From assembly GCA_963712305.1 (NCBI GenBank), contig CAVQHI010000001.1, positions 1,077,383 through 1,141,382 of the forward strand: a stretch of DNA of 64,000 nucleotides. Direction: 5' to 3'. This document shows positions 9,990 to 36,047 of this stretch, piece by piece. Position 1 is the first letter of the stretch. Each line of letters begins with the position of its first letter. Below the pieces are notes generated by a model. The model ran no database searches. It was not told the DNA's origin and saw only the letters and a list, made by a program, of their open reading frames with translations. The position numbers were made by a program, and so were the translations under genes. Origin of the DNA: an uncultured bacterium (GTDB lineage: Bacteria; Bacteroidota; Rhodothermia; Balneolales; DATFMH01).

Positions 9990-10096
9990 TTTTGAATGTT
10001 TAATTATGAATTTTGAATTACCATCACATTAGCGATTAACTGATCAGGTATAACTACTAACTGAGCACTGAACACTCAAATCTCAACACTTATTAA

Positions 10097-11962: not shown

Positions 11963-12212
11963 ATAAATAATGTAAACGTGTGGGTAGTCACAATCACAGA
12001 CTTGCAACATGTTACTGGATACACTTTATTAAAGAGTGTTTTGGTTTTATGTGTTCAGTGATTAGTTGGAATTGACTCGCCACTCTTATTACTGAAAGCA
12101 AATGAAATCTCTTCATTCCGTGTTGTGTTCGAACACTTATGGGTGAAAAAACGTTGCAAAGAAGGCACCATCTAATTCATAATTAAGAATTTAAAACCTA
12201 AATTAATGCGGA

Positions 12213-14047: not shown

Positions 14048-14298
14048 CCCAATCTGGAGCCGATTATTGTTATGCTAAACCGTTATCAATTCCTGTTCGT
14101 TGTAGAAATTCACAAATGACTCTGTCTCCTGTATCCACGCTACACGGGGTCAAAATCTGAAATCAACGATGTAATCTCTTCAAGATCACCATTCGGCTCG
14201 TACGGTGCAAATCCGCCCAATTGCTGATTGGTTAATAGCGTATAAAACTATAGTTCTGAGAATATAAGGGTGATTCACAAAAAGGAAGAATTATTTGA

Positions 14299-16332: not shown

Positions 16333-16368
16333 CCCTTTTTAAACTTACGACATTCAGCGGAATCGATT

Positions 16369-18405
16369 TTATCGCGCTTTGAACTCTACAGGTTCACTAT
16401 TTTTGCTTTCATTTTCTGAAGTATCAACGGCTCTGACAATCAACCACTCCCCGTTTCCAATCCCCCTGTTTCTCAAATTATAATGATTTTGACTGATCAA
16501 TGAATCCGAAACCAGATGATAAACGCCTGTTTGCAGGTTAGATTTATAAATACGGTAACCGGCCATATCATATGTAACGACGGGACTCCATGTCAATACA
16601 AAATTATCCCCGTTCCTCCTGATCCGGACATTGGAAACTCTGCGTGGAGGCTGATGATCGCGAACCCAAACCGTGTCAGATGATACTGCCGAGCTCTTAT
16701 TCCCAGCCGAATCCACAGCTATCATACTGTACAGATACCGATGTCCGAGCTCGATTTGTTCATCCCTCCAGCTTGTTGTTCCCGGATTGAAGTGGCGTGT
16801 TTGTGAACTATCCGTATCTAGTCTCTTTTTTGATAGCTTATAGGTTGTTGCATCGCCGGATGCAGAGTGAGTCCAGATGACATCAATCCAGGCTGCATCA
16901 TGGTTACGGGCACGGAGGTAAGATGGAGGTTTCGGCGGAGTGTTATCTGGAACCTGATAAACGGTAAACAAAGTATCACTCACATTATTGCTGCTGTCAA
17001 GTGCAGCCAGACCATAGCGGTAGTAGGCACCCTCACTGAATCCCAAACCGCCGTTCCCTTTATCTGTAAATACGGTATCACGCATATTGGAAAGATTCAG
17101 TTTGAGAAACCCATCACTTGATGTCTCATTTCCGTTTTGACGCAGAATGATCCAGCTTTTAAAATCACGAGGCATCCTTGAAGGTGTCCACGACAGGTTC
17201 ACTACCGAGTCTTTGTAACTCACCGTGATCCTGCGTGGTGAGGGCGGTGGCGTTACATCCTGGTATAATGCAGAGCCGGGAACACTCTTCGGACTCTCAT
17301 TTCCAGCCGAGTCAACAGCCGAAACACTGTAATAGTAGACATTGCCCTGAACCGCAGTTGTATCGGTGTAACTTTGGTTCTCCGCCGGTAACAGTTGGTT
17401 TGTCATCAACGAGTAGCTGTCCTCCATGTTCTTTTTGCGATACACCCGATACCCTTCCACATCCAGGTCCTTGCTGCTTGGCCAGCTAACCAACATCCCC
17501 TTTTGTCCCGCCACTGCTCCAACGGCACTGATGACATTTGGTGGCACATTATCGATAACATTGTAATCCAACACCTCGCTGGGTTCACTTTCCTGGCCCG
17601 TGATTGAAACGGCCCGGACGAAAAAGTGGGCGGTCACTCCGGATCTGTCCACATTGAAGGTATATTGGAATTGCTGCTTGTCTGTCTGCCTTAATATGAT
17701 GTCGGGATCGTTAATGAGCTGAATATTCCCGTTATTATCCTTCTGATATACATTAAACCGAATTACATGATCATCATTTTGAAGATTGAATGACGCATAT
17801 TTCCATTTCAGCGTTATCAGATTGCCTTTATTTTTAGCAGACAGATCAGTGGACGTCGTCATCACGTGTGGCTTAAGCGTTACCTTTTTGTCCAGGATCT
17901 TTCCCGTGGGATTCCCGATATCATTCACAAACTCTATGTGGTAGGTAACTGTGGAACCTATTGATGCAGTAGAATCGATATAAAGCCGTCCCAAAGCCTG
18001 TGCAACTTCGGGAAACGTAAACGAATACAATCTTCCTTCAACAGGATGTGATCTCAACTTCAGAAACAAACTTTGCGGTGTATAAGCCTGCATCGCTTCT
18101 TGCAACACATCATATTGATCACCTAGAACGCCTTTCAACATTGCCGGATAGGCTACTGAAAGAATCGGCTCATCATTGAGCTTTTTGAGAGAATCCGATC
18201 CCTGATCTTTCCGGTAAATATTGAAACCATGTCCCGGCGGAGGCAGCATCGTATGATAAATATAGACTGCCTTTCCCCGTATAGCAATGCGCATTTGAGG
18301 CGAACTGTTATCCTGAGATTTGGCTGGTTTTATCTGACCCATAACCATCAAACAGCATGCACCGCAAAAGACGGCTAAAAACTTCCTGAATCCTCCAGAT
18401 CTCAT
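16369..18405 (-). CDS. secreted fibronectin type III repeat protein
   Basis: Signal-peptide-like N-terminus. At least 5 FN3-like modules are bounded by D-x-(T/V)-P-P-x-P linkers and end in Y.Y.v.AvD.sGNeS-type strands. The ATG lies 2 nt after the giant gene's stop codon. Confidence 0.8.
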   Translation of the reverse strand: MRSGGFRKFLAVFCGACCLMVMGQIKPAKSQDNSSPQMRIAIRGKAVYIYHTMLPPPGHGFNIYRKDQGSDSLKKLNDEPILSVAYPAMLKGVLGDQYDVLQEAMQAYTPQSLFLKLRSHPVEGRLYSFTFPEVAQALGRLYIDSTASIGSTVTYHIEFVNDIGNPTGKILDKKVTLKPHVMTTSTDLSAKNKGNLITLKWKYASFNLQNDDHVIRFNVYQKDNNGNIQLINDPDIILRQTDKQQFQYTFNVDRSGVTAHFFVRAVSITGQESEPSEVLDYNVIDNVPPNVISAVGAVAGQKGMLVSWPSSKDLDVEGYRVYRKKNMEDSYSLMTNQLLPAENQSYTDTTAVQGNVYYYSVSAVDSAGNESPKSVPGSALYQDVTPPPSPRRITVSYKDSVVNLSWTPSRMPRDFKSWIILRQNGNETSSDGFLKLNLSNMRDTVFTDKGNGGLGFSEGAYYRYGLAALDSSNNVSDTLFTVYQVPDNTPPKPPSYLRARNHDAAWIDVIWTHSASGDATTYKLSKKRLDTDSSQTRHFNPGTTSWRDEQIELGHRYLYSMIAVDSAGNKSSAVSSDTVWVRDHQPPRRVSNVRIRRNGDNFVLTWSPVVTYDMAGYRIYKSNLQTGVYHLVSDSLISQNHYNLRNRGIGNGEWLIVRAVDTSENESKNSEPVEFKAR

Positions 18406-18407
18406 TA

Positions 18408-21400
18408 TTAATTCCCAAATGAACTGTTAATATTATAATTATACACCGGTTTATTAACCTGTACTTTCTCGCTTTGGGCACCGCTCAGCCAAACTACCCG
18501 GGTCAACCCATTTCCATTAGTGATACGAATCCCCACTTCAAGATTTCGATAAAGTGTAATCATATACGGATACACGCCATAACTGAATGTTATTTCTATT
18601 GAGGTCGACTGTCCGGCTGGCACCAGGTCCGTAATTGCAACCAGGTCGTGCCATTGCCCCGAGCTTTCGTTACCGACTGTAGTAACCTTATACTCAACCC
18701 GGCGAATACCCGATTGCGGATCTTTGATGTTGCTCACAGTCAACCGGGCCCGTTTATTAGACAAGCTGCTAAGGTTCACCGTTGGTTTGGCCGGTATACT
18801 TTTATCAATGACAACAGGACCGGTTACCGCTGCGGTTGAATTCATGTTCTGTTTATTAAATGTGCGATAATGGACGTAGTAGGTTCCTGATGACAACTGA
18901 TCGTTTGACACATCTAACTCAGTTGCTGGTAAGTTTCCCGGCCACTGAATATCGCCCTTAGCCGCCTGTTGCCATACATAAATTCCGAATTCCCCTCCAA
19001 GCCCCGGTTGCAATTCATCAGTTGGACTGTCGGGCCAGGTTTTAATCGTTGGCTCCCCGGTTGCGGTCTGACCGATAGCGTACTCACGTCCTTTGATATC
19101 AGACTCAAGGTCTACCGATGGCTTTGTCACATACAGGCGAATGACGTCAGGCATTATCATCGCAGCAACTTTGGGTTTATATGGCGAGGTCGGATCATGA
19201 ATGACTACCGGTCCGAAACGATCGGATTTGCCATATAAGCCGGCATTATTTTGGGCCCTGACGAAGAAATAAAGCGAATCTTTAAAATTCAGTTTACCTC
19301 CTCTTAACTGTACCATTTGATTCTTTGTAGAATCAAGAGACATTGCATCTGAGAAAGCGGCACTGGTATCAGGATTATTCGTAATTACATATTGATAATT
19401 GTAGATGCCCGATTCACTATCTCTTGCCGGCGACCACTTGAGAGTGTAACTGGGTGTTGCGCTGCTGTAAGTGTACGTTGGTCCCTCCATTTGAGGCCTG
19501 TGTTGTACTACAGGAGTAGCCTGCCTATTACCGAATCCGTACACCTGGTATCCACCGCTGACAGGCTGATAAATATACACGGGTTGAATATCAGGAGCAG
19601 AAGGAGCCGTTCCATCATACATGACACCCGACTGTACATGCTTTTCCCTGCTTCGCAGTCCCTCGGAGTTCGTTGAACGAACGCTAACATAAACCGGGTG
19701 ATCGCTACTTAACCTCAGATCATTGGCCGTAATATGATATCTCACATTTGCCATTCCACCGTTATTGCCGCCGCTGCTCAATCGTTGTCCGTGAGCGTCA
19801 GTCCATTGCACGACATTCTGTCCCCCGGGATATGTTCCGATAGCATATTCAACCGATGCAATATCAGATTCCATATCGATCGTCGTGACATCAAACTCAA
19901 TCCTGTCTCTGTCATGAGACATGTATACATATTGCAACCCGGTATTGCTGTTACTGCCGGAGCCGCCAGAACCGTTATAGTTCGTTCCATTTGGCAGATT
20001 ACTACTCGTTGACATACTCAACTGGGCACCCGTAGTTGTTTTGGTCAAATCACCCACAAATCTCTGCGTTTTGTGATATGGGAATGTGACATATGGTGTT
20101 GACGGAGCTGTGTTATCATGATTAATAACATTCTGAGTGTTAGTTACAGAAGGTTCTGGCGATCCGGGGTCAACTGGAACGTCCACCGATGCCACTCTTG
20201 AAATAGTATTTCCTGCTGGTCCCCTCGCACGAACAATTACGCGATAATGTCCGGTTTTCTGTGATGAGGTCCTCTTGAAGGCATAGTAATCCAGATGATC
20301 CTCCGATCCCGCAGTAACCAAATTGCTTGAAAAGATCGATGTTCCGGTCCCCGGTTCAACCAGGATGCTATTTTCAACGACATCGCCGGTCGGATGAGAG
20401 CTGCTCCAGTTAATCTTCATATCATTTCGATAATCATCCTGATCATATTGCATCGTGATGTTATTCACCACTGGAGGTGCAAGCTGTTGATCAAGCTGGT
20501 TCATCTCCTCTTCGATACCGGCGGCTGCAGAATCACCCATCACTGATTTGCGCCAGTTAGCATACACGTCCATCATTCCATACAAGGTGGCCGTCATATT
20601 TGCTTTGATACTGTATATCGTATCCTCAAGCTCGGTGAAACGTTTATGCTTTTGCTTCAGATCGTTTTTGATCGTGTTATAATACTGGATGAGTGAGTCC
20701 GCCATCATCCTGGAATTGCTTTTCAGTGAATCGGCGCCATCCTTAACCGTTTTATACCAAAGCTCCTGGGCCGTGGTCCGGAACATATTTTTAAATGCCC
20801 CGGGATTATTGTTTGCCAGTGCCTGTCTCATTGCGTCTGCTGTCTGGCTCGAATCCGATGTCGCTTGTTGGTTATCGCGTGTCAGATGGTGGATGAAATA
20901 ACGACGCATTCTTGCAACTTTTATGGCCGTACTTTTATAGTCATCTTTGATCTGGCCATTACTGTTGGACATCGTATTAGTGATGTCGTCGATTGCAGAG
21001 TTTATCGATCCATGTAAGCCAGAGATTTGATTACCCACACTTTGTGCCCCATAATAGAGCTGCCATCTCCGATTGATGCGATAACTGTAAAAGTTGTTGT
21101 ACTCATGCTCCATATCGAGATAAGACTTCGCAACATCGTTTAGAGTCGGGCCCAAATACAATGTTATGGCAGGCAATACATGCAGTTCTCCGCCAGCCAT
21201 AAAACTTGTTCCCTGCGTTGTAATTGTAGCCCTTCCTGAAAGTGACTGATCGATTCCGGAAATCATAGTATAAACCGTATCAATCACACTCCGATACTGC
21301 TGGTCGAGCTGCGCGATGCTCTGTTTGTAATTTGCCAGATTATCGCTGTTTTGATTTGCAAGATCAGTATTTACCGAGAATGAGGGCGCACTGCCACTAC

Positions 21401-24400
21401 TCCAGTCGGTGTTTACATTCTGAATAGGCGACGATATTTGATCAGCAAAACTTTGCTCTTCGGTTTCCCACTGAATAGCCTTAGCCTTTGTATTCCTGAG
21501 TCGTTTGATGACGGGGGTTGCCTTTTGAACAAGATCCTCCGTTTCATTTTCAAGAACACTCTGATAAAGCTGGAATACTCCCGATGAAGTATAGTGATTG
21601 TTGAAATTGGTTACGATTTGTTTCACCTGCCTGAATGCACCCGGAGCAGGTTGTGTGAAATAACCCTGCTTTTGCGGCGTAATATCCTTTTCGTTATCAA
21701 TCCAACGCTGCATGATGTTCTGTCGTTGATAATTATCTTTTGTCAACAGTTGCAAGCCGGCAGCCATTAATTCCTGTTGCGTCAACTCTGGCAACTGAGG
21801 CGTGTTTATCGCATCCTGGACAGCATCACCGGCCTCATTCGCTTTGTTCTGCATGTCCTCGGCTTCTTTCCGTGCCTTGTCGACAAGTTCATCATAACGC
21901 TTGTTCCTTCCTGTGCCACCGTCAAATTTCCCGTTACGCAGGGATACCCAGACTCCTACCGTGCCGTTGAACACAAATGCTACCTGAACATGGGCACTTG
22001 CCGCTGCATAAAGGAGATAATTCCTGTGTTCCTTGATAAAGGCACCCTTAGCCGTGGCATCCAATTTTGCCAATCCACCCACAACGGAGGCATGAATTCC
22101 TATCTCGGCATAAGCCCCAAACAGATCTTTGCTTTTAACCCAGAAGACCTGCGCGTCAAATCCACTTTTGATAGTGATAATCTTGAAGTCAAAACCACTG
22201 TGGACACCGACATCGAAGTAAAAGCCGTCCTGGCATACGATAATCTTTGTGCTGGCCTCGGCCAATTTTAATAAACTCAGATCCCCATTACCTTTAAACG
22301 CCCATGTTACTGAGTTATCAGATTTCAACACGGCTTTAAAGCTGACCTCTAATTTCCCGGTTATAGCTTCATGTGCATTGATGGCAACAAAACCGTCCGC
22401 ATTTATATTTATCTGGTTTCCGCCATTCACGTCACTCAGTCGAATGCTGAGGCTGAACCCTCCTTTCATGCTCATTCTGCCTTCTTTTCCATCCTGTTTA
22501 AGCACAATGGCATGAGCGTCAATGAGCACATTTGTATCCGTGATAACAGCCAGTGCACTGCCTTCCGCAGCATATGCCCCCGTTGATCCGGCGATGCCCA
22601 TATCTACATTAACAATGACTGCAAATGTGTAGTTTTGGTTACCGCTCCAGGGTGGCGTATAGTTCATCCCCTGGTCGCTCGACTGACTTGCAACAGTCTC
22701 ATATCCGGTTAGGTCTATTACTTCCTGTATATCCCGGGAACTCGCATTGTAGAAGAAACCGCCGCCAATACCGGTCATGGTAATAACCCCCGGAACAACA
22801 GGAACCGTGGCTTTTACTTTCACAAATACACCGAATTTCAGTTTTTGATTCAGGGTCGATATCTCTCCGAATGCAGCAATTTCAGAGGTACTCTGTCCTA
22901 TACTGAACGATCCATCACCAGCCACCTTCAGCAGGATTCCATTATCCCCGGAGTCGAATTGCATATCGGCATTTATATTTGCGTGGTCCCCGAATGTCAA
23001 AGATGCTTTCTGGATTGCAAAATGGACTCCGTTATCATCGGTCGTTTGATAGAAATAGATGTGCTGTACACTACCGCTTATGCTTCCAATCGTAATGGAT
23101 AATGCACTATTCGTGTTCTGTCCCGGGCCAAAATCAAGATAGTTGCTCACATTGATCGTCTCCTCCTGAGCATCATCTATGTCGTGTGGATCATCATTAG
23201 CTCCACTGTTGTTTTTACGAACGGTGATTGTGCCCGATTCTTTATAAGTGAATTTCCCGACTTCAATCTGAACCTTGTCTCCTAACGTCTTCAAATGTCC
23301 GCCCGTGAAATCACCAATTGAGGCAACCCCGGTTTCGTCGATGATCATGTTTGCGAAGCTAAATCCGCCGTCAATATCACTCATATTAAGACTGGCACTT
23401 CCATCGAACTTCAATCCGAAGTTCGATGCATCTGGTATTGAAATGTTGCTGACCCCGATGTCGAAAAACTGACGGTTGAAATCCAGGTTCGAGTTGGGTT
23501 CAACATGCCACGTTGTATGCCCATCCTGGTACTCAAAACCATGTTGCCCGGATACAGAACCGATATGAATCGTGCTGTTTCCGCTGGACGGATTCTTTAC
23601 TGTCAAATCGGCCGACGTGTAGAAGCTGGTCTGACTCATATCCTGTAAATCCATGTTTATTCCGGCGTCGGTCAACGTAATAGTCGCAAAATCTCCAAGG
23701 TCATATGATGGATGTTGTGACAGATCAAACTCCGGACCCTGCGTCGTAACATTTCCATCTTTATCCACCGCAACAGTAAAGTTTGAACTGTCGCTGATTG
23801 GAGCAGGCAGCGTAACTTCCCCCTGTGCCTGAAGTTTAAGGGATGAGTTTTGCATTAATAACTTCAAAGAAGTCAGGGATGCATAATTGCCCAAAATAGG
23901 CTGCGGTTGATTCAGGAACTCGAGACCTGCATTCTGAATGGATACATCGCCGTTTGATCCGATACTCAGATTCTTGAAAGAAAAATCGCGGTCGAGTGCG
24001 TGCAGGTTCCCGCCCATCGTAAGGGTCAACACATTCTGCTGGTAGTTAAGATCCAGGCTATCAAGCCTCATGTGCGCAAACCCGTTTAGGATGTCAACAT
24101 CCTGAGGCGTCAGAGCATGCGTATCAATCTGGTTCACCGATACACCGCCGGTTCCTATTCTCAGATTTTGGATACTCAGCTCAAATTCATCACCCAAAAG
24201 TTCCGGAGCCTGCAGCCGTCCGTCAATGACCATCGCAAGTTCCTGCGGTGATACGGCAATGGTCAGACCATCGACCTTCATTCTGAGCCAGTGGTCTCCA
24301 ACCCCATATTCATCACCAAGCTGCTGTGCGTTACTGGCGAAGTTCCACTTGTCGTTCGTGATATCATAACCGGCGGAAAAATGGAGTCGTCGCATCTTTT

Positions 24401-27400
24401 GAGTAACTGTATCGACCAGCATCTTGCTGTAAAACTCACCAGACAGATTGATTTCTTTCTGGTTACCCATTTTCACCTGAGCACCATCCACCGACATAAC
24501 GAACCCACTGTCCGGAAGGAAACTGTGCGAGACAAGAGGATGTTGCGGCACTTGAGCAGGTAATGAATGCGAATATTCACCAGCTTCAATTGTTGCCTTC
24601 TCAAAACCATCGGGACCAAGGGTAACCTCGTTTATGGCTACAGGTACGTCATTAAGAGATTGAGGCAACAGAATTTTCAGTGAAGCGGTCAGCTTGAACG
24701 GTTCGCTCGATTTTTTGGCATACTTAAGGGCTGTAATTGATAACGGGACCTGCATCAATGGTTTCAGATCTATCGGATTCTGTGTCAGATCGGCCTGAAT
24801 CTGACCTCCCATGATCTGGAAGGAACTGTTCACATCAACATCCTGGAATGTGACATCGATAACCGGCGGATTTGCATTATCCAACCCGGCAAGCACCAGT
24901 TTTACCGACTTGTTGGCCTTGGTTGACAGCCGCATTCCGCCTTGAATAGATTGCGATTGAACATTCAGAGGTTGATTGGGCCCGTCCCTAAGCACAAGGT
25001 AAGCAACATCCCTGGTCGGCAGCCCTAAAGTATCCGGCAGAGGAACTGCAGCCACAATGTTATCCATATGGAAACCCTGCTGGTCGTAGTAGGCTACACG
25101 TTCAGTCTGTCCATTCTGTTCCACTTTATTAATGTCAGCACGTCCCGATGTCACCTGTACCGGTGCAAGGCTCATGCGCATATTATGGAACTGCACCTGG
25201 TAATCGTCACCGTTCTCGCCGCCAAACCGCATTGCCACCGTACTCTGACCATTGACCAGCATGCCGTCTTTGTCGATGGTTACTTGCTGGGGCATCACAA
25301 AACGAACTCCCGGATCAACAGAAATAGGTGAGTTAGGATCGACGACGGTCCATTTCAAAGGATTGAAGCCGACTTCCATGCCAAAACTATCCTGGAACTG
25401 AATATTGCCGGATGATATGGTACCATCAGAGAGATTTAGGGCCAGGTTATTGAAGTTTGCCTGAACTGTTGCACCATCGGCATTCAGCGTTCCTCCCCCT
25501 GTCAGCACAAAACCGTTATTGGTGATGGCAGCCTGCTGAACGGTAAACTTGAGTAAAGAATCTGTTGATGGGTAGTACCATATAAAGGGACCGGGAATAT
25601 TTATGTTACCCGAAAGCACCTGTCCGTTGAGAACATCCAGCATTAGATTTCCTGATGCTGTCACTGGAGTCGTATTCTGGGTCTTCACGGTAGCCGTTGC
25701 TGAACCCTGCATGATCAGTGTCTGTTGATTTCCACTAAAACCAAACTGGAGCTGTGAACTTCCAAAACTCAAACTCAGCGGACCCATAACCAGTTGACCG
25801 CAGGGAGTGAAGTTGTCAACCGTGCCGGTGAGCCCGCCGAGTTTGTTGAGGCGTACTGCAAACGTTTTTTCCGGGCAGTTTTGATTCGGAGAGACAAAGA
25901 AATCAGGCTCCTGCAGCTTGCCTGATAATTCGATATCGTAATCCTGAGTACCATCCGGAGCCCGTCCAAGGTTACCTGCTATTTGTTGTAGAATGAGTCC
26001 TGTATGCGAACTCAGAGGCAGATTTATCCCATTTTCAAAAGTGTATGGATCAAGCTGTCCCTCAAGAATTCCATTATTGAAACCAATATCACTCAGCGTC
26101 GCCGAGGCGTGTGCCAGTCCGGGTGATGTCTGGGCAAAACCCGGGAATGTCAATTTGAAATCAAGATGAGGGATCAAACCGACCAGATCACCCGGACTGA
26201 ATGAGAACCAGTGTAGTGTGTCCTTCCGTGTTCGGAAAGCCAGTGGTTTCAGATGAAATGCCCCGACATCAAATCCAGTCAGGTTCAACGGCGGTGTTGA
26301 ACTGTCGTTTATCTCCTGTTGCGGAATGATGATGCCGATACCACTCTTAATCTGTACATTTCGCAACGGAACCGTAATAGGATCACCTTCATCCGGAGCC
26401 AACGTGAAATGGACATTGATATCAGCCAAATAGCTTAATCCCTGCTGTTTCGACCAGTTTAGATTGAGTTGGTCAATCTTATCGACGGCAACTTTGAAAT
26501 TTCCCATTTCGAGTTTGGGAAGTGTCGCGTTTGCCTGGCTGTTGAATTGTGTCACAGTCATCTGATCCTGGGTCCAATGGAGTCCAAGACTCGCAGATGC
26601 TGCCGCCTCTCCGTTCAGAGCATTGACGTGGAAATCTGCATTCATATCGAACGAGAACTGTGAATTGGCAGGATCTGTCGCAGGAATATCAAGATCTCCG
26701 GAGATTGAGTTAACATTAAGTGCCACCCGTGATTGATCTTCAAGAGGCAGCTCTGCATTCATGTCAGATAAATCCACCTGCGAGTGGAGATGGCCATTTA
26801 ACCCGGCTGCAATAGTAATGTGTCCATTATCTCCAAGACTATGATCAAGCAGAGCGATTTCTGATTTTAACTGCAGTTCGGGAGAACCGCCATTATTACC
26901 AGGGTCGCTAAACAAGACCTGGTACACCTTTGCGGGAACACCTAACCGGTTCAGGTCAAAAGCGGCATTATCTTCGGGAACATCTACACTGATCGTGCCA
27001 CTCATCACATCACCGGTCGAGGGATTAATGTCCACATTATTCAGATTGACATCTAATTGGGGTGCCTGTGCCAGGTTGCCTTGTAAGGCTGGAAATACTA
27101 ACGGTAAGGATGCCCCCGGTTTTTTTGTAATTCGCAACGTGCCATCCGGCTGCCGCTGCGTTTGTACCAGCAGAGTGTCGTTTCGTTTAATTTGCAGATA
27201 AGCGATCGATTCAAGCGGCAAAGGTATTCGTTCAGGCAGAAACTGGTTTCCGAAAAATGCCGGATCGGGAAAGAAGCCGTTGGTCGTTGCGTAACCGACA
27301 CGCTGACCCTTCCAGTCTAAATCGACTTCTCCGTTCTTAATTCCGAACGGCTGTAATGCGATAGCGAAATCATCCGAAAACTGTGCCCTCAAGCTGTCCA

Positions 27401-30400
27401 GTTGCCACTGATCATAATGCAATTCAGCCTTGGATGATCCGGTAGCATGAAGACCAAGCGTATCAATTTGAAGAGTACCTTTCAGCGAGGCCATAAGTCC
27501 GGGGTTCAGTGACAGAGTGCCTGGAAGCGGTTGTGTGTGAAAAGAAAGATTCTGGCTGTTGTCGATTCCTGCCTCGAGTGCAAAACCACTGTCGATAATC
27601 ACACGGCCACTTTTTACATCAAATGTTTTCCAGTCGAGAACCAGGTTATCAAAGGTCGAGCCAATTTGTTGGTTTCCAACCTTCAGCGTTTGCCGACCGT
27701 CGATATATAGTCCATCTTTGGTGATCTTCGCCCTGTTGATATGAAAGACCATAACCGGGTTATCCTTTGGGATGTTCCAATCGAACGGATGATTCATCTC
27801 GAAGTCGACTTTAGAAAACTCTCCAGTCATCAGATCGATTGCTACCTGACCGGTCACAGATTGATTATCTCCTAAATCCAGAGTAGCAGTACTGCTCAAT
27901 ATCGCCTGTTGTTGACCATCTTTCACATTGAAGTTTATATCGGCCTGATTAATAGCAGCGGTATACGGACCAATTGCTATCGGACAATCAGGTGCGACGT
28001 TTGAGATGTTACCCGTAAGTGTACCGTCCTGATGAAGTGCCAATGTCGCCTGACCCAGATCTGTCTGATGAGGTGGATCACAAGTGAATGGTTCACCCAG
28101 CAATAAACTTGCAGAGAGTTTTACATTACAGTCGACTTCCGGCTGATCCCCTAATGCGATACCAATGTTTCCACCAAGTTTGTGAAGAATTAAGGCATAA
28201 TCTCCTCCCAGAGGGATTTTGCAGTTGTCCAGCACTGTGCCCTTCAAGGCTCCTGTCAGTTGCCCATCTTTGAAACCGGCATCGGACACGGTATAGTCTC
28301 CGGTTTTCAAGCAAGATGGAAATGTGTCAGGAAGATCATCGAATCCAAACGTGAAACTGAAATCCAGATTCCAATCATCATCCTTCCACTGGTCACGGTT
28401 AAAAAACGGGAAGTTTACTTTAGGAAGATGCAGTGATACCGGCTTGATGTGGATACCATCGAAATGCAGCACCGGTATTCCAGCAAAATCGTCCGATGTG
28501 AGGTTAATATCAGGAAACTGCATCCCTTTGTCAGACGAAAGCTTCAGTCCTTTCAGCTCTGGCAGCGACAACGGAGTCAAGCCGGTAATAGCCGGCCAGG
28601 CATCGAAACTGAATCCGAAATCCCATTTCGATTGTGATGATGAGGATGGATTGTAACCAAGATGATCAAGGTTGATCTTATCCAGTCCAAGTGACATCAC
28701 ACCGAGATTAAGAGTTGGATTGGGGATTTTGCAGTCTGGTATCAATTTGCCGACCGAAACGCCTTTACTGTCTCCCAGGCGGATGGTTGTTAGTCCGCCG
28801 CAATAATCGCTGGTATTCTCTTTGAGTTTGAATCCAATCTGGCTTTGAATTGCCAGGTTGTAGTGTCCTTTTCCTCCCTTTAGCGGATAATGAATATCGC
28901 CCGTAAGATTGAGCATCTTGAACCTCAGCAGCTTCGATTGAGGAACAGGGTAAAAAACCTTTGAATCCCGGCAATCTATCGCGGCCATCACTGTATCCTC
29001 GCGAAATCCAAGCAACGGGATATCGCAAGTTAGTTCACCGCTAAACAGGCTCACCTGACCCGATGCCATCAAATCTGCTTCAGGAAACTGTACAGATAAA
29101 GTGTTGACCTCGAGTTTTACCGGATCCTGACCGTAGGCGAAGATAGGCCCACCTTCATTTCCGGCTTCAATCTTGCCTGACAATCCCTGGGAGTTAATCT
29201 GTAATTTCCCCTTACTTTTATATGTTTTACCATCGGGACCAACAATATCAGCAGTGGCTGTCATCCCACTGCCCAGATCCCAGCTAAGCTTATTCAGATG
29301 GATCAGATTATTTGACGGGACAAGATCCTCAGGCAGTGAAAAATGGCCGGCTACGACCTGTCCACCTAGTACAACCGGCGGATTCATAGATCCTTTCTGA
29401 ATCGAAAGATTTCTCACATCCACTTTGACGATAACAGGCTCAGGTTCGGTTGTAAACCGGAGGAGAAGAGTTGCGGTCCCATTCAATATATAATTACTGG
29501 TCAGTTCCTTATAATTCAGATTTTTCAAATTTACCAAGTCAGCAAAACCGGGTATCAACGGAATATTTTTCAGATTTTTTAAAGATTGAGATAGCTGGTT
29601 TTCTGAATTATTCAGTCCGAAAATGAATGTCTGGATCTGGCTTTTCCCGCTATCTTTAAACGGAATCAATCCTTCCGGATCGGTGGCTGTTATTTGCCAC
29701 GCATACTGATGACCTTCTTCCAGAGGCAGGTTATTGGGGGTGTAGCTGTAAGTAGTCTGATTGTTCAGTACGTGATCGGCCGTCGGTCGGTTGCTGTTGA
29801 TCGCCTGAAGTGGAGTTTGCCCGTCAACGATTTCCACGATCTTCAGGTGATAATCGATTGGTAATCCCTGTCCTGTTACAACCGGTGTCCATGCAAATAC
29901 GGGTATTTTCTGAGTAACATTCGATTCATTGGAAGGACTCACCAGAATAGGCGGCTGCGGCAGTCTCACAGTAAACACGGCAATCCCGGGGACTACACCT
30001 ACAGCCCCCGTCTCTCCTTGTGGGATAGCTCTGATCTCCATGCGATAGGTTCCCTCCGGAATGTTGCCCCCCTGGACGACCTGTCTTTTAATTTTCTTAT
30101 CAAGGTTATTTAGAACATCTGAGATAGATTTAGGAAAGGATACATCATCAAAAAAGGAGGAAAACGTGTACATGCCCGGTGTATACTGGACCGGATCGGA
30201 AGTCATATCTATAAGATTATCTCCATTTCGCGATAGCTTCATCTCAAAACGAAAACTTTTCGGTAACTGAGAAGCATTGGAATACATGAACTGAACCCGG
30301 TATAAACCTACCCGAAATTTCTTTTCCAGCACTCCCAAATATGGCGATGAGATCTGAGATGGAATACCAATTATCTGAACCTGGCTTGTACCCTGTGCCT

Positions 30401-30500
30401 GCACGGAAGTTGTCGACACTACACTCAAAAATCCCACAAACAGGACTAATCCTGTCAGGGTTTGTAATATTTTTTTTATCGTAATTCTCATTCTCCTCAT
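18408..30500 (-). CDS. giant (4,030 aa) secreted modular protein of unknown function
   Basis: A single uninterrupted 12,093-nt ORF. GAGG lies about 9 nt upstream of the ATG. Signal peptide ...VVSTTSVQA-QG. From N to C: Ig/FN3-like N-terminal modules, about 2,300 aa of beta-rich sequence, a Gly/Ala/Val-rich segment, a ~480-aa helical Q/N/K/E-rich segment, and five C-terminal Ig/FN3-like modules. Confidence 0.9.
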   Translation of the reverse strand: MRRMRITIKKILQTLTGLVLFVGFLSVVSTTSVQAQGTSQVQIIGIPSQISSPYLGVLEKKFRVGLYRVQFMYSNASQLPKSFRFEMKLSRNGDNLIDMTSDPVQYTPGMYTFSSFFDDVSFPKSISDVLNNLDKKIKRQVVQGGNIPEGTYRMEIRAIPQGETGAVGVVPGIAVFTVRLPQPPILVSPSNESNVTQKIPVFAWTPVVTGQGLPIDYHLKIVEIVDGQTPLQAINSNRPTADHVLNNQTTYSYTPNNLPLEEGHQYAWQITATDPEGLIPFKDSGKSQIQTFIFGLNNSENQLSQSLKNLKNIPLIPGFADLVNLKNLNYKELTSNYILNGTATLLLRFTTEPEPVIVKVDVRNLSIQKGSMNPPVVLGGQVVAGHFSLPEDLVPSNNLIHLNKLSWDLGSGMTATADIVGPDGKTYKSKGKLQINSQGLSGKIEAGNEGGPIFAYGQDPVKLEVNTLSVQFPEADLMASGQVSLFSGELTCDIPLLGFREDTVMAAIDCRDSKVFYPVPQSKLLRFKMLNLTGDIHYPLKGGKGHYNLAIQSQIGFKLKENTSDYCGGLTTIRLGDSKGVSVGKLIPDCKIPNPTLNLGVMSLGLDKINLDHLGYNPSSSSQSKWDFGFSFDAWPAITGLTPLSLPELKGLKLSSDKGMQFPDINLTSDDFAGIPVLHFDGIHIKPVSLHLPKVNFPFFNRDQWKDDDWNLDFSFTFGFDDLPDTFPSCLKTGDYTVSDAGFKDGQLTGALKGTVLDNCKIPLGGDYALILHKLGGNIGIALGDQPEVDCNVKLSASLLLGEPFTCDPPHQTDLGQATLALHQDGTLTGNISNVAPDCPIAIGPYTAAINQADINFNVKDGQQQAILSSTATLDLGDNQSVTGQVAIDLMTGEFSKVDFEMNHPFDWNIPKDNPVMVFHINRAKITKDGLYIDGRQTLKVGNQQIGSTFDNLVLDWKTFDVKSGRVIIDSGFALEAGIDNSQNLSFHTQPLPGTLSLNPGLMASLKGTLQIDTLGLHATGSSKAELHYDQWQLDSLRAQFSDDFAIALQPFGIKNGEVDLDWKGQRVGYATTNGFFPDPAFFGNQFLPERIPLPLESIAYLQIKRNDTLLVQTQRQPDGTLRITKKPGASLPLVFPALQGNLAQAPQLDVNLNNVDINPSTGDVMSGTISVDVPEDNAAFDLNRLGVPAKVYQVLFSDPGNNGGSPELQLKSEIALLDHSLGDNGHITIAAGLNGHLHSQVDLSDMNAELPLEDQSRVALNVNSISGDLDIPATDPANSQFSFDMNADFHVNALNGEAAASASLGLHWTQDQMTVTQFNSQANATLPKLEMGNFKVAVDKIDQLNLNWSKQQGLSYLADINVHFTLAPDEGDPITVPLRNVQIKSGIGIIIPQQEINDSSTPPLNLTGFDVGAFHLKPLAFRTRKDTLHWFSFSPGDLVGLIPHLDFKLTFPGFAQTSPGLAHASATLSDIGFNNGILEGQLDPYTFENGINLPLSSHTGLILQQIAGNLGRAPDGTQDYDIELSGKLQEPDFFVSPNQNCPEKTFAVRLNKLGGLTGTVDNFTPCGQLVMGPLSLSFGSSQLQFGFSGNQQTLIMQGSATATVKTQNTTPVTASGNLMLDVLNGQVLSGNINIPGPFIWYYPSTDSLLKFTVQQAAITNNGFVLTGGGTLNADGATVQANFNNLALNLSDGTISSGNIQFQDSFGMEVGFNPLKWTVVDPNSPISVDPGVRFVMPQQVTIDKDGMLVNGQSTVAMRFGGENGDDYQVQFHNMRMSLAPVQVTSGRADINKVEQNGQTERVAYYDQQGFHMDNIVAAVPLPDTLGLPTRDVAYLVLRDGPNQPLNVQSQSIQGGMRLSTKANKSVKLVLAGLDNANPPVIDVTFQDVDVNSSFQIMGGQIQADLTQNPIDLKPLMQVPLSITALKYAKKSSEPFKLTASLKILLPQSLNDVPVAINEVTLGPDGFEKATIEAGEYSHSLPAQVPQHPLVSHSFLPDSGFVMSVDGAQVKMGNQKEINLSGEFYSKMLVDTVTQKMRRLHFSAGYDITNDKWNFASNAQQLGDEYGVGDHWLRMKVDGLTIAVSPQELAMVIDGRLQAPELLGDEFELSIQNLRIGTGGVSVNQIDTHALTPQDVDILNGFAHMRLDSLDLNYQQNVLTLTMGGNLHALDRDFSFKNLSIGSNGDVSIQNAGLEFLNQPQPILGNYASLTSLKLLMQNSSLKLQAQGEVTLPAPISDSSNFTVAVDKDGNVTTQGPEFDLSQHPSYDLGDFATITLTDAGINMDLQDMSQTSFYTSADLTVKNPSSGNSTIHIGSVSGQHGFEYQDGHTTWHVEPNSNLDFNRQFFDIGVSNISIPDASNFGLKFDGSASLNMSDIDGGFSFANMIIDETGVASIGDFTGGHLKTLGDKVQIEVGKFTYKESGTITVRKNNSGANDDPHDIDDAQEETINVSNYLDFGPGQNTNSALSITIGSISGSVQHIYFYQTTDDNGVHFAIQKASLTFGDHANINADMQFDSGDNGILLKVAGDGSFSIGQSTSEIAAFGEISTLNQKLKFGVFVKVKATVPVVPGVITMTGIGGGFFYNASSRDIQEVIDLTGYETVASQSSDQGMNYTPPWSGNQNYTFAVIVNVDMGIAGSTGAYAAEGSALAVITDTNVLIDAHAIVLKQDGKEGRMSMKGGFSLSIRLSDVNGGNQININADGFVAINAHEAITGKLEVSFKAVLKSDNSVTWAFKGNGDLSLLKLAEASTKIIVCQDGFYFDVGVHSGFDFKIITIKSGFDAQVFWVKSKDLFGAYAEIGIHASVVGGLAKLDATAKGAFIKEHRNYLLYAAASAHVQVAFVFNGTVGVWVSLRNGKFDGGTGRNKRYDELVDKARKEAEDMQNKANEAGDAVQDAINTPQLPELTQQELMAAGLQLLTKDNYQRQNIMQRWIDNEKDITPQKQGYFTQPAPGAFRQVKQIVTNFNNHYTSSGVFQLYQSVLENETEDLVQKATPVIKRLRNTKAKAIQWETEEQSFADQISSPIQNVNTDWSSGSAPSFSVNTDLANQNSDNLANYKQSIAQLDQQYRSVIDTVYTMISGIDQSLSGRATITTQGTSFMAGGELHVLPAITLYLGPTLNDVAKSYLDMEHEYNNFYSYRINRRWQLYYGAQSVGNQISGLHGSINSAIDDITNTMSNSNGQIKDDYKSTAIKVARMRRYFIHHLTRDNQQATSDSSQTADAMRQALANNNPGAFKNMFRTTAQELWYKTVKDGADSLKSNSRMMADSLIQYYNTIKNDLKQKHKRFTELEDTIYSIKANMTATLYGMMDVYANWRKSVMGDSAAAGIEEEMNQLDQQLAPPVVNNITMQYDQDDYRNDMKINWSSSHPTGDVVENSILVEPGTGTSIFSSNLVTAGSEDHLDYYAFKRTSSQKTGHYRVIVRARGPAGNTISRVASVDVPVDPGSPEPSVTNTQNVINHDNTAPSTPYVTFPYHKTQRFVGDLTKTTTGAQLSMSTSSNLPNGTNYNGSGGSGSNSNTGLQYVYMSHDRDRIEFDVTTIDMESDIASVEYAIGTYPGGQNVVQWTDAHGQRLSSGGNNGGMANVRYHITANDLRLSSDHPVYVSVRSTNSEGLRSREKHVQSGVMYDGTAPSAPDIQPVYIYQPVSGGYQVYGFGNRQATPVVQHRPQMEGPTYTYSSATPSYTLKWSPARDSESGIYNYQYVITNNPDTSAAFSDAMSLDSTKNQMVQLRGGKLNFKDSLYFFVRAQNNAGLYGKSDRFGPVVIHDPTSPYKPKVAAMIMPDVIRLYVTKPSVDLESDIKGREYAIGQTATGEPTIKTWPDSPTDELQPGLGGEFGIYVWQQAAKGDIQWPGNLPATELDVSNDQLSSGTYYVHYRTFNKQNMNSTAAVTGPVVIDKSIPAKPTVNLSSLSNKRARLTVSNIKDPQSGIRRVEYKVTTVGNESSGQWHDLVAITDLVPAGQSTSIEITFSYGVYPYMITLYRNLEVGIRITNGNGLTRVVWLSGAQSEKVQVNKPVYNYNINSSFGN

Positions 30501-30544
30501 TTCACTGCCTCTGATTTAGGCTCCATATTTTTGGGGAAATTCAT

Positions 30545-32299
30545 CTAAAATCGATGCCGGTATTGAAATCTTCCCTGAAGTTCTTTGAAATTCTGACCTC
30601 GCCCCTGCAGTGCTTCATTATCCAGGAAACGGACAGATAAATTGAATGTATCTTTGCTCGTCAGCCGGTATGAAGCCGAGCCGTTACCCATGATTTGTGC
30701 CATCTTCATATTTCCGGCAGTCACGTTCACACTGGGTGTAGTCTTGTTTGTGTTATATCCCCCATTCAATGAAAGTGTCAGTTTGTTCTGAAGCATGGAA
30801 TAACTCAGGCCAGTGTTAAAACCAATGTTATTGATATCCACTGAACTGGAGTGGTTTTTCATGTAGTTGACCGACGCATTGACTCCCATCCCGCTCGGCA
30901 GCGATACGCTATATGACATCATCCCGTTAATTGTGCTGGACCCAAAGTTCGAAGGAACATTAGCATTTGGCTGAGAAGACTGGTCAAGACTGGTTTTAAG
31001 GTTCAGATACGACAGACTCAGCGAGATCGTATGCATTAATGCTCCTGCCTGCATAGACAGGGTCGGCTGCACCATTATGTTATTGGAAACCTGTGTTTGC
31101 CCCAGGCCTGCCGTCAAAGAATCGGCAACCCCGGCCGTAGGATTTATCTTATGAATAAAAAGGTTGTAAGAGGTATTGACCGTGAAAAAATTGGAAAACT
31201 GGGTTTGAAGATTGCTACCAAGCTGAGTCGTTTTTTGGGTGGTCAGACGGGTTCCGTTGAGATTATCCCGGCCAATAGAAAGGTTGTTGGACATCACGAC
31301 ACGGCCACCGGCGAGTTTAAATTTAGGGGCGATACTAACCGTCTGCTGATCATCCCGTATCTGACTGACTCCAAGTGATGTAAAACCGGGTTGAATACGT
31401 TCCAGTCCCAGGCTGAGGGCAAATACATCTAGATCAAGAGCGGCCTTGGCATTTCCCGCATAATTCACTCTCGACCCTGTTCGCGGTTTGAATAATTTTG
31501 ATATAAATGGGGGAACCCCCGCACTTGATAGATCCAGCATTTTAGCATTTAAATCACGAGTATAAACCGAAACCGTAACCTGACTACTTATATTGAAAGC
31601 ACCTTTAAACATGGATATTCCAAAATCCGGAGTCAGTTGAAGGTTCTCTTGCGGTGTATCCACTGCCGTTGTATCCAACGAATTCTTATCATCAATGGCA
31701 TAGAGAGCATTGATGTAAAAATGACTCTTCTCCTCATCTCCAAAACCGATTTTCCCAGCCATCATCCACTGACGATAGGCAATTTGTCCTAAGCCAACAT
31801 TTGGTCCCGGCCTGACGGCACGCTGTGATCGCCCGCCGGTAAGTTCCAGATGAAAAGTACCCGGTGTGAGCTTAAGATAACCGCCCCGTATGGTTGCTCC
31901 GCTCAGACTGTATTTCCCCATCTGTGGACTTACGTCACCGACCTCAAGATGAAGCCAGTGCCAGTTTCCGTTAAAACCAAACCGATTCATGCTTTGCCGG
32001 AACCGGGAATTGTCAGATGAGTAGAGAAGATTCAGACCTGAATGAATCCCAAACAGTGAAAAGGAAACATTAGCATTTGCACGGGCAAGGAGCCCCGGCT
32101 GACGGCCATTAATTCCGTAGGCCTGGTACGCTTGTGTTGTAAACCCAACCGATCCGCCCGCCGTAAAAGGCTGAATATTCGTATCCCCTATACTGCCTGT
32201 GCTGATTTGAGCATCTGCCGTGTTTACAACAAAAAAGCATACCCCGAACATCAGCATTGCCAATGCTACAAGGTTAATCCTTATTTTTATTCGAATCAT
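30545..32299 (-). CDS. putative outer-membrane beta-barrel protein (584 aa from the ATG at 32299)
   Basis: Signal peptide MIRIKIRINLVALAMLMFGVCFFVVNTADA-Q with AAGGTGAGG just upstream. The sequence is rich in G/S/N/T/Y, shows alternating-hydrophobic strand patterns, and ends in C-terminal ...FQYRHRF (the terminal aromatic typical of OMPs). Confidence 0.6.
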   Translation of the reverse strand: MIRIKIRINLVALAMLMFGVCFFVVNTADAQISTGSIGDTNIQPFTAGGSVGFTTQAYQAYGINGRQPGLLARANANVSFSLFGIHSGLNLLYSSDNSRFRQSMNRFGFNGNWHWLHLEVGDVSPQMGKYSLSGATIRGGYLKLTPGTFHLELTGGRSQRAVRPGPNVGLGQIAYRQWMMAGKIGFGDEEKSHFYINALYAIDDKNSLDTTAVDTPQENLQLTPDFGISMFKGAFNISSQVTVSVYTRDLNAKMLDLSSAGVPPFISKLFKPRTGSRVNYAGNAKAALDLDVFALSLGLERIQPGFTSLGVSQIRDDQQTVSIAPKFKLAGGRVVMSNNLSIGRDNLNGTRLTTQKTTQLGSNLQTQFSNFFTVNTSYNLFIHKINPTAGVADSLTAGLGQTQVSNNIMVQPTLSMQAGALMHTISLSLSYLNLKTSLDQSSQPNANVPSNFGSSTINGMMSYSVSLPSGMGVNASVNYMKNHSSSVDINNIGFNTGLSYSMLQNKLTLSLNGGYNTNKTTPSVNVTAGNMKMAQIMGNGSASYRLTSKDTFNLSVRFLDNEALQGRGQNFKELQGRFQYRHRF

Positions 32300-32418
32300 A
32301 AACCTCACCTTCTCACACTCACGCCACAACCTCACAACAAATAACCCCAACCATTTTAATCCCACATAAACAGATCGTGTTCATTACCGGGGTTGTCATA
32401 AAAGTCCAGACTCTTCTA

Positions 32419-32967
32419 TTATTTAAGGCCCACCATGACCGCAGAGCTCGATATCTCTTTTCGTGAATCTCGATTTACCGGAATTACGGCCACTACATAC
32501 AGCATCTTAAAACCACCACTCTTTTGGAGGGCCAAATTTGGGACCCACCGATCGTCAGGAAACCAATGAGCATCAGGAAACCATTCATCACCCGGCAAGT
32601 AACTATCATCAGGAAGGTAGGTGCCGGATGGGAAATAGGTACCACTTGGGAAAAACGGGCTCTCACCGGAAATCTCGAATGAACGACTTTTGTAGCTTTT
32701 AACAATTTTACCCTTTTGAACAATTGATGTTACCAGTATGCATTTAACCGATTCTTGGATATCAGCCTTTACATATATGCTTCTTTCGACCAGTTGCTGG
32801 AGTTTGGAACCATCCATCTTTTGCCGGGGAAGCTGCATCTTAACAGCCATTTTTAGCTGACCGTACTGGGCATTTGCATTACATGTAAAAATCAGCAATA
32901 AAACGTTTAAAACCACTGCACAAATATTCCAGCACCGAATATTTTGTCCCTCTTTTTGAGCCTTCAT
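32419..32967 (-). CDS. small secreted protein with six tandem aromatic hexapeptide repeats
   Basis: AAGGAAAAGG lies upstream of the ATG at 32967. Signal peptide ...LLIFTCNANA-Q. Repeat block: FPSGTY FPSGTY LPDDSY LPGDEW FPDAHW FPDDRW. Confidence 0.6.
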   Translation of the reverse strand: MKAQKEGQNIRCWNICAVVLNVLLLIFTCNANAQYGQLKMAVKMQLPRQKMDGSKLQQLVERSIYVKADIQESVKCILVTSIVQKGKIVKSYKSRSFEISGESPFFPSGTYFPSGTYLPDDSYLPGDEWFPDAHWFPDDRWVPNLALQKSGGFKMLYVVAVIPVNRDSRKEISSSAVMVGLK

Positions 32968-33726
32968 TTTCACCTTTTCCTTATGAATAATTCCAATTAT
33001 GAACAGTCTATAAATTCACGTTGATGACGTATTATTTTTCGAAAGCATTAAATAAGTATTCTCCATTTTTATCATTAAAATGATCCATACGTTTCATCTA
33101 AATTTTACTTTTAAAAAGGTATTAAACCCTAACACTTTTTATCTTTAAACACATAATATGCTATGATTTGTCGTGTAATCATGGTTCATACAGAAGTCAG
33201 AATAGTAAACCAGATCTATCTTAATATCTGAGAAAACCGGGGTGAACCAATTGCGCAACACACTCCTCTATTACTGACTTCAACCAACCATTTTTATTTC
33301 TATTAGGCCACAACTAGAAATAAAGGTCAAAAATTAAACTTAAATATTCAGTGTGGATATATACCGTATTTTTAGATAAGAACTGTGCAAATGCACACTT
33401 TTATAATAGTCATGTAGGAAATAAATATGATACCAACTGATATTATATAATATTTACTAAATCTAATAGTATGATAATATTTTCATGACCTTTCTCATGA
33501 CTTTATATTTAATATTCCTAATAGTTATATACATGCATATAAAGTATATTACGCTCAAGTGAAAAAAATTTTTTGGGGAAAATTTTAATTTGTTTGGGTG
33601 AAAATACCGAGACCTCATTAGACAGCAATCTAAATTTTACGTGATTACGCTTATTGATTTCTTTGAGTCAAACAGACTATCCTCTTAAATACATTAGTGC
33701 AACTTTTTGGGGTTAGAAAAGGGGTT

Positions 33727-33984
33727 ATGAATACAAAACTAACATTGAAACCCGGTCAACGGGGAACAAAAAAGCTACTTAAGAAGTATGGCAACAGGCT
33801 CATTTGTGTGCGCTATCGCTACGATGAGGAAAAAAAGTTGCGATATAAAACTGTGGAGTTAATCGTCGATGTTTCGGAATGGGAGCCGAAAGAAGATGCG
33901 ATTAAAGATGAATCCATTCATCCTGAAATAGAAGAATTCAGCATTCCAGAAAAAAAGAAAACGTTCGACGGTAATTCTAAATAA
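33727..33984 (+). CDS. small basic conserved hypothetical protein (85 aa)
   Basis: MNTKLTLKPGQRGTKKLLKKYGNRLICVRYRYDEEKKLRYKTVELIV... I recall similar small proteins (KPGQRGTKKL...VCVRYRYD...KTVELIV) in unrelated bacteria but cannot name the family. It is the only credible ORF in the AT-rich gap. Confidence 0.45.
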   Translation: MNTKLTLKPGQRGTKKLLKKYGNRLICVRYRYDEEKKLRYKTVELIVDVSEWEPKEDAIKDESIHPEIEEFSIPEKKKTFDGNSK

Positions 33985-36036: not shown

Positions 36037-36047
36037 CGGAGATCACA

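Follow-up and report, generated by a model that had tools for sequence, protein, structure and literature searches.

Very large proteins are known to be placed on or across the bacterial outer membrane by the type IX secretion system (T9SS), two-partner secretion (TPS), autotransporters and chaperone-usher systems, and bridge systems such as TamB/AsmA (with TamA/TamL) and Lpt are built on elongated beta-sheet proteins. Here we describe a gene set found in a 64,000-nt stretch of DNA (the window; positions 1,077,383 to 1,141,382 of contig CAVQHI010000001.1, assembly GCA_963712305.1) from an uncultured bacterium of the Balneolales (Bacteroidota). It consists of a 12-kb gene, whose product of 4,030 aa we call the giant protein, and three fixed partners, and it is kept in at least 239 sequence clusters over several lineages of the FCB group (the Fibrobacterota-Chlorobiota-Bacteroidota superphylum). 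This cassette appears to be new: two of its four proteins, one of them the product of the 12-kb gene, could be assigned to none of the curated families and solved folds tested, and the gene set seems to fit no known secretion or envelope system. The four genes are as follows (window coordinates).

30545..32257, minus strand: partner gene 1, a beta-rich protein of 570 aa with a signal peptide and the C-terminal end ...HRF; barrel-like, of no known family
18408..30500, minus strand: the giant gene, an uninterrupted open reading frame (ORF) with an ATG start; 4,030 aa, mature protein ~435 kDa, isoelectric point 5.1
16369..18405, minus strand: partner gene 2, an FN3-array protein of 678 aa, with the start taken at the ATG that yields a signal peptide
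14299..16332, minus strand: partner gene 3, a TPR protein of 677 aa with a signal peptide

The genes are tightly packed on one strand (gaps of 44, 2 and 36 nt), and Sec-type signal peptides are seen on all four window proteins as well as on the giant protein and partners examined in general. Eight distinct loci had sufficient flanking sequence for a comparison of gene content: the window (with L003 and L004), L006 (of which L007 is a second copy), L008, L009, L010, L011, L012 and L013. At every one of them, the gene after the giant gene occupies the position of the FN3-array partner (640–700 aa where complete; in L008 it is truncated at the contig end and was left unsearched, and in L011 it shows only faint Ig-type matches), and a protein of 516–662 aa with no Pfam match is encoded alongside. 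A TPR protein (255–707 aa) is found in 7 of the 8 loci; the L008 contig ends inside the FN3-position gene, before any TPR gene. The barrel-like gene comes first in Balneolales-type loci, and elsewhere it follows or precedes the TPR gene. With a colinear giant architecture and three adjacent partners, the giant, FN3, TPR and barrel-like genes form a conserved cassette. As a separate observation from one distant locus only, a Peptidase_S74 gene (L012, 1035–2159) lies directly upstream and overlaps the giant gene by 4 nt; Peptidase_S74 is the intramolecular chaperone/autoprotease type of phage tail spikes and fibres.

The barrel-like partners are mutually homologous (24–41% identity; hmmsearch E-values of 1e-77 to 5e-97), beta-rich and equipped with signal peptides, and 7 of the 8 end in Phe (...HRF, ...HSF or ...YRF), the exception being the L012 protein. 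A signal peptide, a beta-rich chain and a C-terminal Phe make up the usual look of an outer-membrane barrel, and by this pattern partner 1 looks like one. These partners gave no match in Pfam, NCBIfam or the PDB (the latter searched with the partner profile) and no Omp85 or POTRA signal in Pfam or NCBIfam; the hhalign probability against E. coli TamA was 0.2%, and hhalign comparison of the partner with all parts of the giant protein found no relation.

The giant protein is encoded, identically over its 4,030 aa, on two more public assemblies (a 138-kb ENA contig and a 24.5-kb Logan contig), so an assembly artefact is ruled out as the source of the long reading frame. Proteins named as Balneolales are the cluster partners, at ≥90% identity, of housekeeping genes in the window. 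A sequence search of the whole giant protein against the PDB returned zero matches, and neither Pfam nor NCBIfam has a family that covers the body, the Gly-rich block or the helical block of the window protein or of any of 23 relatives; Ig/FN3 domains are the sole parts recognised by these searches. The first-pass annotation, made from the letters of the window and a list of ORFs, had divided the protein into segments and called the architecture unusual. The segment map is broadly borne out, with the same boundaries colinear across the family, and the lack of any family over the three central blocks agrees that the architecture is unusual. The segments, all on the minus strand, are listed here with their residue ranges.

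30396..30500, minus strand: Sec signal peptide, residues 1–35, read from the sequence, with probable cleavage at VQA/QG (A35/Q36)
29601..30395, minus strand: N-terminal domain pair, residues 36–300; ~181–296 weakly Ig-like, first half without a match
22821..29600, minus strand: all-beta repeat body, residues 301–2560, made of a lead-in (301–594), modules 1 and 2, and a degenerate partial module (2061–2560)
26520..28718, minus strand: module 1, residues 595–1327, 25% identical to module 2
24321..26519, minus strand: module 2, residues 1328–2060, 25% identical to module 1
21912..22820, minus strand: GGGFFY and amphipathic block, residues 2561–2863; conserved GGGFFY (2579–2584), two short helices and ~15 long strands with tight turns
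20481..21911, minus strand: helical segment, residues 2864–3340, with heptad-like stretches at ~3052–3089, 3146–3192 and 3268–3318
18411..20480, minus strand: FN3-like tail, residues 3341–4030, about five modules, without a conserved C-terminal sorting signal

Using an index-free HMMER search with a two-module profile, we identified 239 related proteins at E ≤ 1e-3 (193 at E ≤ 1e-30) among 1.84 billion representatives, and the status of an orphan gene was rejected on this basis. A word-indexed search of 5.8 billion clusters with residues 2451–3400 had returned one partial relative (P0001, from a Bacteroidota metagenome-assembled genome, MAG), 29% identical to the giant protein across residues 2701–4013. 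Two more word-indexed searches, one with the two-module profile and the other with a C-terminal profile of three sequences, found 0 relatives each, a scan of genome collections gave only two 5-kb MAG fragments, and a metagenome scan found no relatives. We note that the query's own cluster was also missed by the word-indexed protein search. Divergent repetitive giants can thus seem to be orphans in k-mer-seeded searches, and the label 'orphan' may be a search artefact.

Family members come from Balneolales, Rhodothermales, Ignavibacteriaceae and Bacteroidota MAGs, and the named ones (from Ignavibacteriaceae, Rhodothermales and Bacteroidota MAGs) are all labelled 'hypothetical protein'. Most relatives are 3,800–4,400 aa long, with both modules at matching coordinates and all segments colinear with the window protein; the 85 full-length relatives share 22–50% identity with it. 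A Pfam scan of 23 diverse members gave only Ig_Rha78A_N, fn3 and one marginal Ig_J_second match, and no account of the family or of the cassette turned up in our literature searches. The module count runs from 2 to 5, with three modules in proteins of ~4,700–4,930 aa, four in those of ~5,390 aa and five in those of 6,250–6,400 aa, i.e. in length steps of ~730 aa. Relatives such as P0033, P0035, P0039 and P0071 differ from each other by whole 733-aa modules (2, 3, 4 or 5 copies; 4,000 to 6,400 aa), a pattern in the sequences that points to repeated unequal recombination within the gene.

The body holds two copies of the 733-aa module (mutual identity of 25%), and residues 2219–2388 are a partial third copy. 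In profile-profile comparison of family alignments, the lead-in (301–594) and the stretch after module 2 (2061–2560) also match the module, and the Gly-rich block and the helical block show no relation to the body. According to hhalign with family profiles, the module aligns to itself at offsets of ~63–81, 203, 286, 371, 456, 594 and 659 residues; from these offsets only, it may tentatively be described as built of degenerate units of ~70–80 aa, about ten per module. An ungapped profile autocorrelation of the module showed no clean short period. Five Cys pairs (492/510, 567/590, 730/760, 807/839 and 1542/1567) are kept in 72–98% of relatives, which suggests disulfide staples in an exported protein. 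The recurring C(K/P)IP-type motifs that the first-pass annotation pointed out are therefore real and accompanied by conserved Cys pairs.

We modelled residues 1861–3060 with AlphaFold2 (AF2) from a 24-sequence family alignment, with a mean predicted local distance difference test score (pLDDT) of 76 and a predicted template modelling score (pTM) of 0.44. The first AF2 run, on residues 2451–3650 with a two-sequence alignment, had a pLDDT of 31 and was used as a hint of secondary structure only. The model runs as an unbroken antiparallel beta-meander to residue 2584, followed by two short helices, ~15 strands, and helices from residue 2867. Residues 1861–2584 are 60% strand at a pLDDT of ~80, and the rest of the body is homologous to that stretch through the internal repeats, in line with the beta-rich character assigned to residues 300–2570 beforehand. 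The 724 modelled body residues contain 52 strands; extrapolated from these, the whole 2,260-residue body would total roughly 170 strands.

Foldseek comparison of the model with the PDB gave 29 matches at E ≤ 1e-3, all with a template modelling score (TM) of 0.3 or below and a root-mean-square deviation (rmsd) of 19–50 Å. The top match is ApoB-100 (E-value of 7e-9, 1,411 aligned columns, TM 0.10, sequence identity of 8%). Full-length LptD structures have E-values of 1.4e-8 to 1.5e-6 and barrel-only LptD constructs 5e-4 to 1e-3; the next matches are the 30-strand Deinococcus SlpA/SDBC barrel, the FimD/PapC ushers, MtrB and porins. No TamB/AsmA-type entries are among the 50 matches shown, and a Foldseek search of a viral library gave low-TM noise only. 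At the level of the prediction, the model resembles long antiparallel meander sheets in its local geometry, without a global fold match, and the long-range arrangement of its beta sheet is uncertain at this pTM. A uniform known adhesin repeat fold, which the first-pass annotation had named as the finding that would overturn its map, was not seen in the modelled part: the Foldseek list contains no Ig, cadherin, BIg or beta-helix proteins. A uniform Ig/cadherin/BIg repeat adhesin was rejected on the same grounds, with no such matches for residues 1861–2584 and the Ig/FN3 signal confined to ~181–296 and the last 690 residues.

These analogues bring in a lipid-handling beta-groove or belt as a rival explanation, in which the amphipathic sheet would shield its hydrophobic face and carry or cover lipids, lipopolysaccharide or other hydrophobic molecules while docked on the partner barrel, like TamB/AsmA, Lpt or the ApoB-100 belt. 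The twelve best PDB matches are all ApoB-100 or LptD (E-values of 7e-9 to 1.4e-6), the E-values of full-length LptD are lower by about four orders of magnitude than those of the barrel-only constructs, and a dedicated putative outer-membrane barrel adjoins the giant gene. In addition, a hydrophobic face opposite a polar one is seen in many body strands and in 12 of the 15 strands of the Gly-rich block, clearly more than in shuffles (for the body, a strand-face hydrophobicity difference of 2.31 vs 1.58 ± 0.21 in within-strand shuffles), although a beta-sandwich or a barrel would show alternating hydrophobicity too. We still consider a groove of this kind unlikely. At such TM and rmsd values the likeness is local only, no AsmA, TamB, OstA or LptD family is matched in Pfam or NCBIfam, and hhalign probabilities against E. 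coli TamB and LptD are below 1%. The cleavable signal peptide leaves no inner-membrane anchor, and the 2.5-fold length variation within the family does not suit a fixed periplasm span.

The next segment had been singled out as rich in Gly, Ala and Val (2570–2860), and it holds up as such: G+A+V make up 32% of residues 2570–2862 vs 22% of the whole protein, and AF2 places ~15 long strands at 2626–2863 (mean length of 13 residues, median loop of 3) after two short helices. Its face hydrophobicity difference is 3.21 vs 1.35 ± 0.26 when residues are shuffled within each strand, and it exceeds that of the body (3.21 vs 2.31). This amphipathy would be expected if the block (~2573–2863) were itself an integral outer-membrane beta-barrel in the manner of intimin or autotransporters, with one flank (the body, or the helices and FN3 tail) exposed, the other periplasmic, and another role for the neighbouring barrel. 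Fifteen or sixteen consecutive strands of 10–16 residues, mostly with one strongly hydrophobic face (FVVVMIG, IGLVFAL, FAAIIAV, FGVVVL) and one polar face, would fit such self-anchoring, residues 2551–2600 and 2751–2900 are among the better conserved stretches, and porins and ushers are among the Foldseek matches. We rate it as quite improbable all the same, since no autotransporter, IAT_beta or outer-membrane protein family is matched in Pfam, the turns are 2–6 residues on both sides, unlike the long outer loops of typical bacterial outer-membrane proteins, the best TM to a 16-strand porin is 0.30, and the block is internal, not terminal, and lacks a terminal aromatic beta-signal.

Residues 2863–3340 had been taken for a helical, possibly coiled-coil stalk. 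The helical assignment is confirmed, with helix onset at residue 2867 in both AF2 runs and a Q/N/K/E/Y content of 32% vs 24% overall; in the low-confidence run the helices end at ~3340 and strands follow after 3345. A crude heptad score exceeds that of shuffles. The stalk is only loosely supported, with helices broken up into several pieces and the lowest conservation anywhere in the giant protein. For the tail, the prediction of five Ig/FN3-like modules agrees with the family profile, which matches titin FN3 arrays at E = 2.6e-14; the tail also aligns to itself, and five 'D/E-S-(G/D)-I..(E)Y' motifs are consistent with five modules, a count that is read from sequence and not from structure. 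Pfam fn3 matches some relatives at E-values down to 2.4e-10, with the window protein alone under the Pfam cut-off.

The helical segment with its heptad character, together with Deinococcus SlpA (barrel plus coiled coil) among the Foldseek matches, would suit a scaffold or tether that stays in the periplasm and, through the partner barrel, ties the outer membrane to peptidoglycan or to the inner membrane, in loose analogy with OmpM/SlpA-type tethers; Sec signals on all components and the lack of a recognisable outer-membrane translocation signal agree with this. We find it very unlikely, however, since the window protein and its relatives match no SLH, OmpA, LysM or other peptidoglycan-binding domain in Pfam or NCBIfam, a body of ~170 strands would, if extended, far exceed the periplasm width, the length differs between relatives, and a syntenic relative does without the cassette, which is therefore dispensable.

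At the N-terminus, the proposed signal peptide (residues 1–35) is upheld by the VQA/QG site and by Q36, which is kept in 86% of the 85 full-length relatives in the family alignment. Of the two Ig/FN3 modules proposed for residues 36–300, only the second is partly supported: residues ~181–296 show sub-threshold Ig_Rha78A_N/fn3 matches in the window protein and several relatives. The first half (36–180) matches nothing, and a search of the PDB with the N-terminal profile was likewise empty.

Our preferred reading, held tentatively and with somewhat less than even confidence, is that the giant protein is the large subunit of an FCB-group four-gene envelope cassette forming a surface fibre or sheet. 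A surface fibre, which the first-pass annotation had also put forward, would be in keeping with the evidence. All four proteins, given their visible signal peptides, would be exported via Sec; the dedicated barrel would hold the giant protein at the outer membrane or pass it through; the TPR protein might serve as a periplasmic scaffold or chaperone; and the FN3 partner would pair with the giant's own FN3 tail. The body would fold as a long antiparallel beta-meander ribbon, stapled by putative disulfides at the conserved Cys pairs, and the count of 733-aa modules (2 to 5 in different family members) would determine its length. The amphipathic 15-strand block and the helical segment would lie between body and FN3 tail as a junction or anchor. 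The expected outcome would be a cell-surface fibre or sheet tens of nanometres long. By our estimate from the model, the extended body would measure several tens of nanometres, above the periplasm width, and each module would add length. We favour a surface fibre or sheet over a periplasm-spanning bridge because of this extended length of ~170 strands and the range of 2–5 modules; a variable length would suit a fibre or spacer rather than a bridge over a fixed gap. By analogy, co-inheritance with a barrel and a TPR protein would recall other outer-membrane export or anchoring pairs.

Several points weigh against a surface fibre or sheet. Pfam and NCBIfam searches of the protein and of its relatives, and a comparison of the C-termini, revealed none of the known secretion signals (a T9SS C-terminal domain, a TPS domain, an autotransporter domain or a type I secretion signal). 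The putative identity of the partner as an outer-membrane barrel comes from its sequence pattern, with no family or solved-structure match. The best structural analogues, ApoB-100 and LptD, handle lipids and are not fibres, and the model with a usable alignment has a pTM of 0.44 and is limited to residues 1861–3060. A further idea, speculative and distinctly unlikely, would combine the surface location with these lipid-handling analogues: the cassette could make an extracellular hydrophobic conduit or membrane belt, i.e. a half-megadalton amphipathic beta-ribbon, exported via Sec, docked on a novel barrel and projecting from the cell, an analogue of ApoB-100 and bridge-like lipid transfer outside the periplasm, with its reach tuned by module number.

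In this genome, the cassette lies within a segment that is missing from a syntenic relative (L005, 77% nucleotide identity).

10022..33440, no strand: segment of 23.4 kb absent from the syntenic relative, containing the cassette, between hisS and a carboxyltransferase operon

The relative has 1.6 kb at the same site (L005 3299–4934) with a gene for a 300-aa cytochrome c. The cassette is accessory in this lineage because the syntenic relative is without the 23.4-kb segment. The segment has no flanking tRNA, a GC content close to that of the rest of the window, and no obvious mobile-element signature. Upstream of the cassette, the stretch 32001–34000 is AT-rich (GC 0.37 vs ~0.45) with a ~470-nt non-coding gap and is likely a regulatory region; scans for promoters, terminators and Bacteroidetes-type -7 motifs were at chance level. 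An ORF of 182/184 aa upstream of the cassette at 32419–32973 (minus strand), with an N-terminal hydrophobic segment and an aromatic/Pro/Asp-rich repeat (FPSGTYFPSGTYLPDDSYLPGDEWFPDAHWFPDDRWVP), is not conserved beside the cassette in other loci. On the other side of the upstream stretch, 34471–37983 (plus strand) carries a sodium-pumping decarboxylase-type operon (carboxyltransferase, OAD_gamma, biotinyl carrier and OAD_beta), syntenic in the relative. Compared with the near-identical assembly L003, the region 8495–14270 of the window has 27 indels and many mismatches, and there are only three mismatches across 14.3–40.5 kb. Genes for an M1 aminopeptidase and a Na+/H+ exchanger are intact in L003 (624 and 614 aa) and split in the window (e.g. 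12213–12779, 12885–13415 and 13187–13771); sequencing or assembly error, a strain mixture or decaying genes could account for the split.

Among described systems, the first-pass annotation had suggested a TamB/AsmA-like bridge. As family membership this fails. The signal (VQA/QG) appears to be cleavable, not an uncleaved inner-membrane anchor, and an Ig-like domain pair follows it; AsmA, AsmA_2, TamB (DUF490), DUF748 and DUF3971 gave no Pfam/NCBIfam match in the window protein or 23 relatives; hhalign of family profiles against E. coli TamB gave a probability below 1% (a weak test, as the target is a single sequence); the partner is without POTRA or Omp85; and the length is not fixed to the periplasm width because the module number varies from 2 to 5. 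What the two share is an elongated repetitive beta-rich protein beside a putative outer-membrane barrel. That the protein may nonetheless work like a TamB/AsmA-like groove is a less likely reading; its best structural analogues (the ApoB-100 belt and LptD) are lipid-handling, and the likeness is local only.

Of the dedicated secretion routes, TPS (FHA/FhaC) and chaperone-usher systems resemble the cassette in coupling a very large secreted protein to a dedicated barrel, and ushers are among the Foldseek matches. They differ in that the giant protein has neither a TPS domain nor beta-helix repeats, no Omp85 or usher family is matched, and the TPR and FN3 partners are without a counterpart there. 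A TpsA protein was rejected for lack of Haemagg_act, Fil_haemagg or ShlB matches and of beta-helix proteins in the Foldseek list, and an autotransporter or inverse autotransporter for lack of an Autotransporter or IAT_beta match, the amphipathic 15-strand block being internal and not a terminal 12-strand domain. The SprB/RemA-type T9SS adhesins are likewise very large, acidic, Ig/FN3-bearing secreted proteins of FCB-group bacteria. In contrast to them, the giant protein and its relatives have no Por_Secre_tail/TIGR04183 domain and no conserved C-terminal sequences, by which T9SS cargo was rejected, and no array of known adhesin repeats makes up the body.

As for LptD and the Lpt bridge, the giant protein has no OstA/LptD family match, a TM of 0.18 or below and an hhalign probability below 1%, and its body is about ten times larger, modular, and joined to helical and FN3 parts; the two are alike in a long antiparallel sheet by a large barrel-like sheet, the giant being encoded with a putative barrel partner. 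From ApoB-100 it differs in having no vitellogenin-type N-terminal domain, and with a TM of 0.10 and 8% identity the two share the character of very long amphipathic antiparallel beta-meanders. The giant protein resembles ApoB-100 and LptD by analogy, in the geometry of the sheet, and for ApoB-100 this is no evidence of homology. Taken singly, the parts of the cassette (a barrel, a TPR protein, FN3 domains and a giant beta protein) are of familiar kinds, and with a full-length structure the cassette could yet prove to be some distant variant of an export or bridge system already known. If it does form a surface fibre or a lipid-handling ribbon via its dedicated barrel, it would represent a new route by which very large proteins get onto the outer membrane or across it, separate from T9SS, TPS, autotransporters and ushers, and also a new large beta-architecture.

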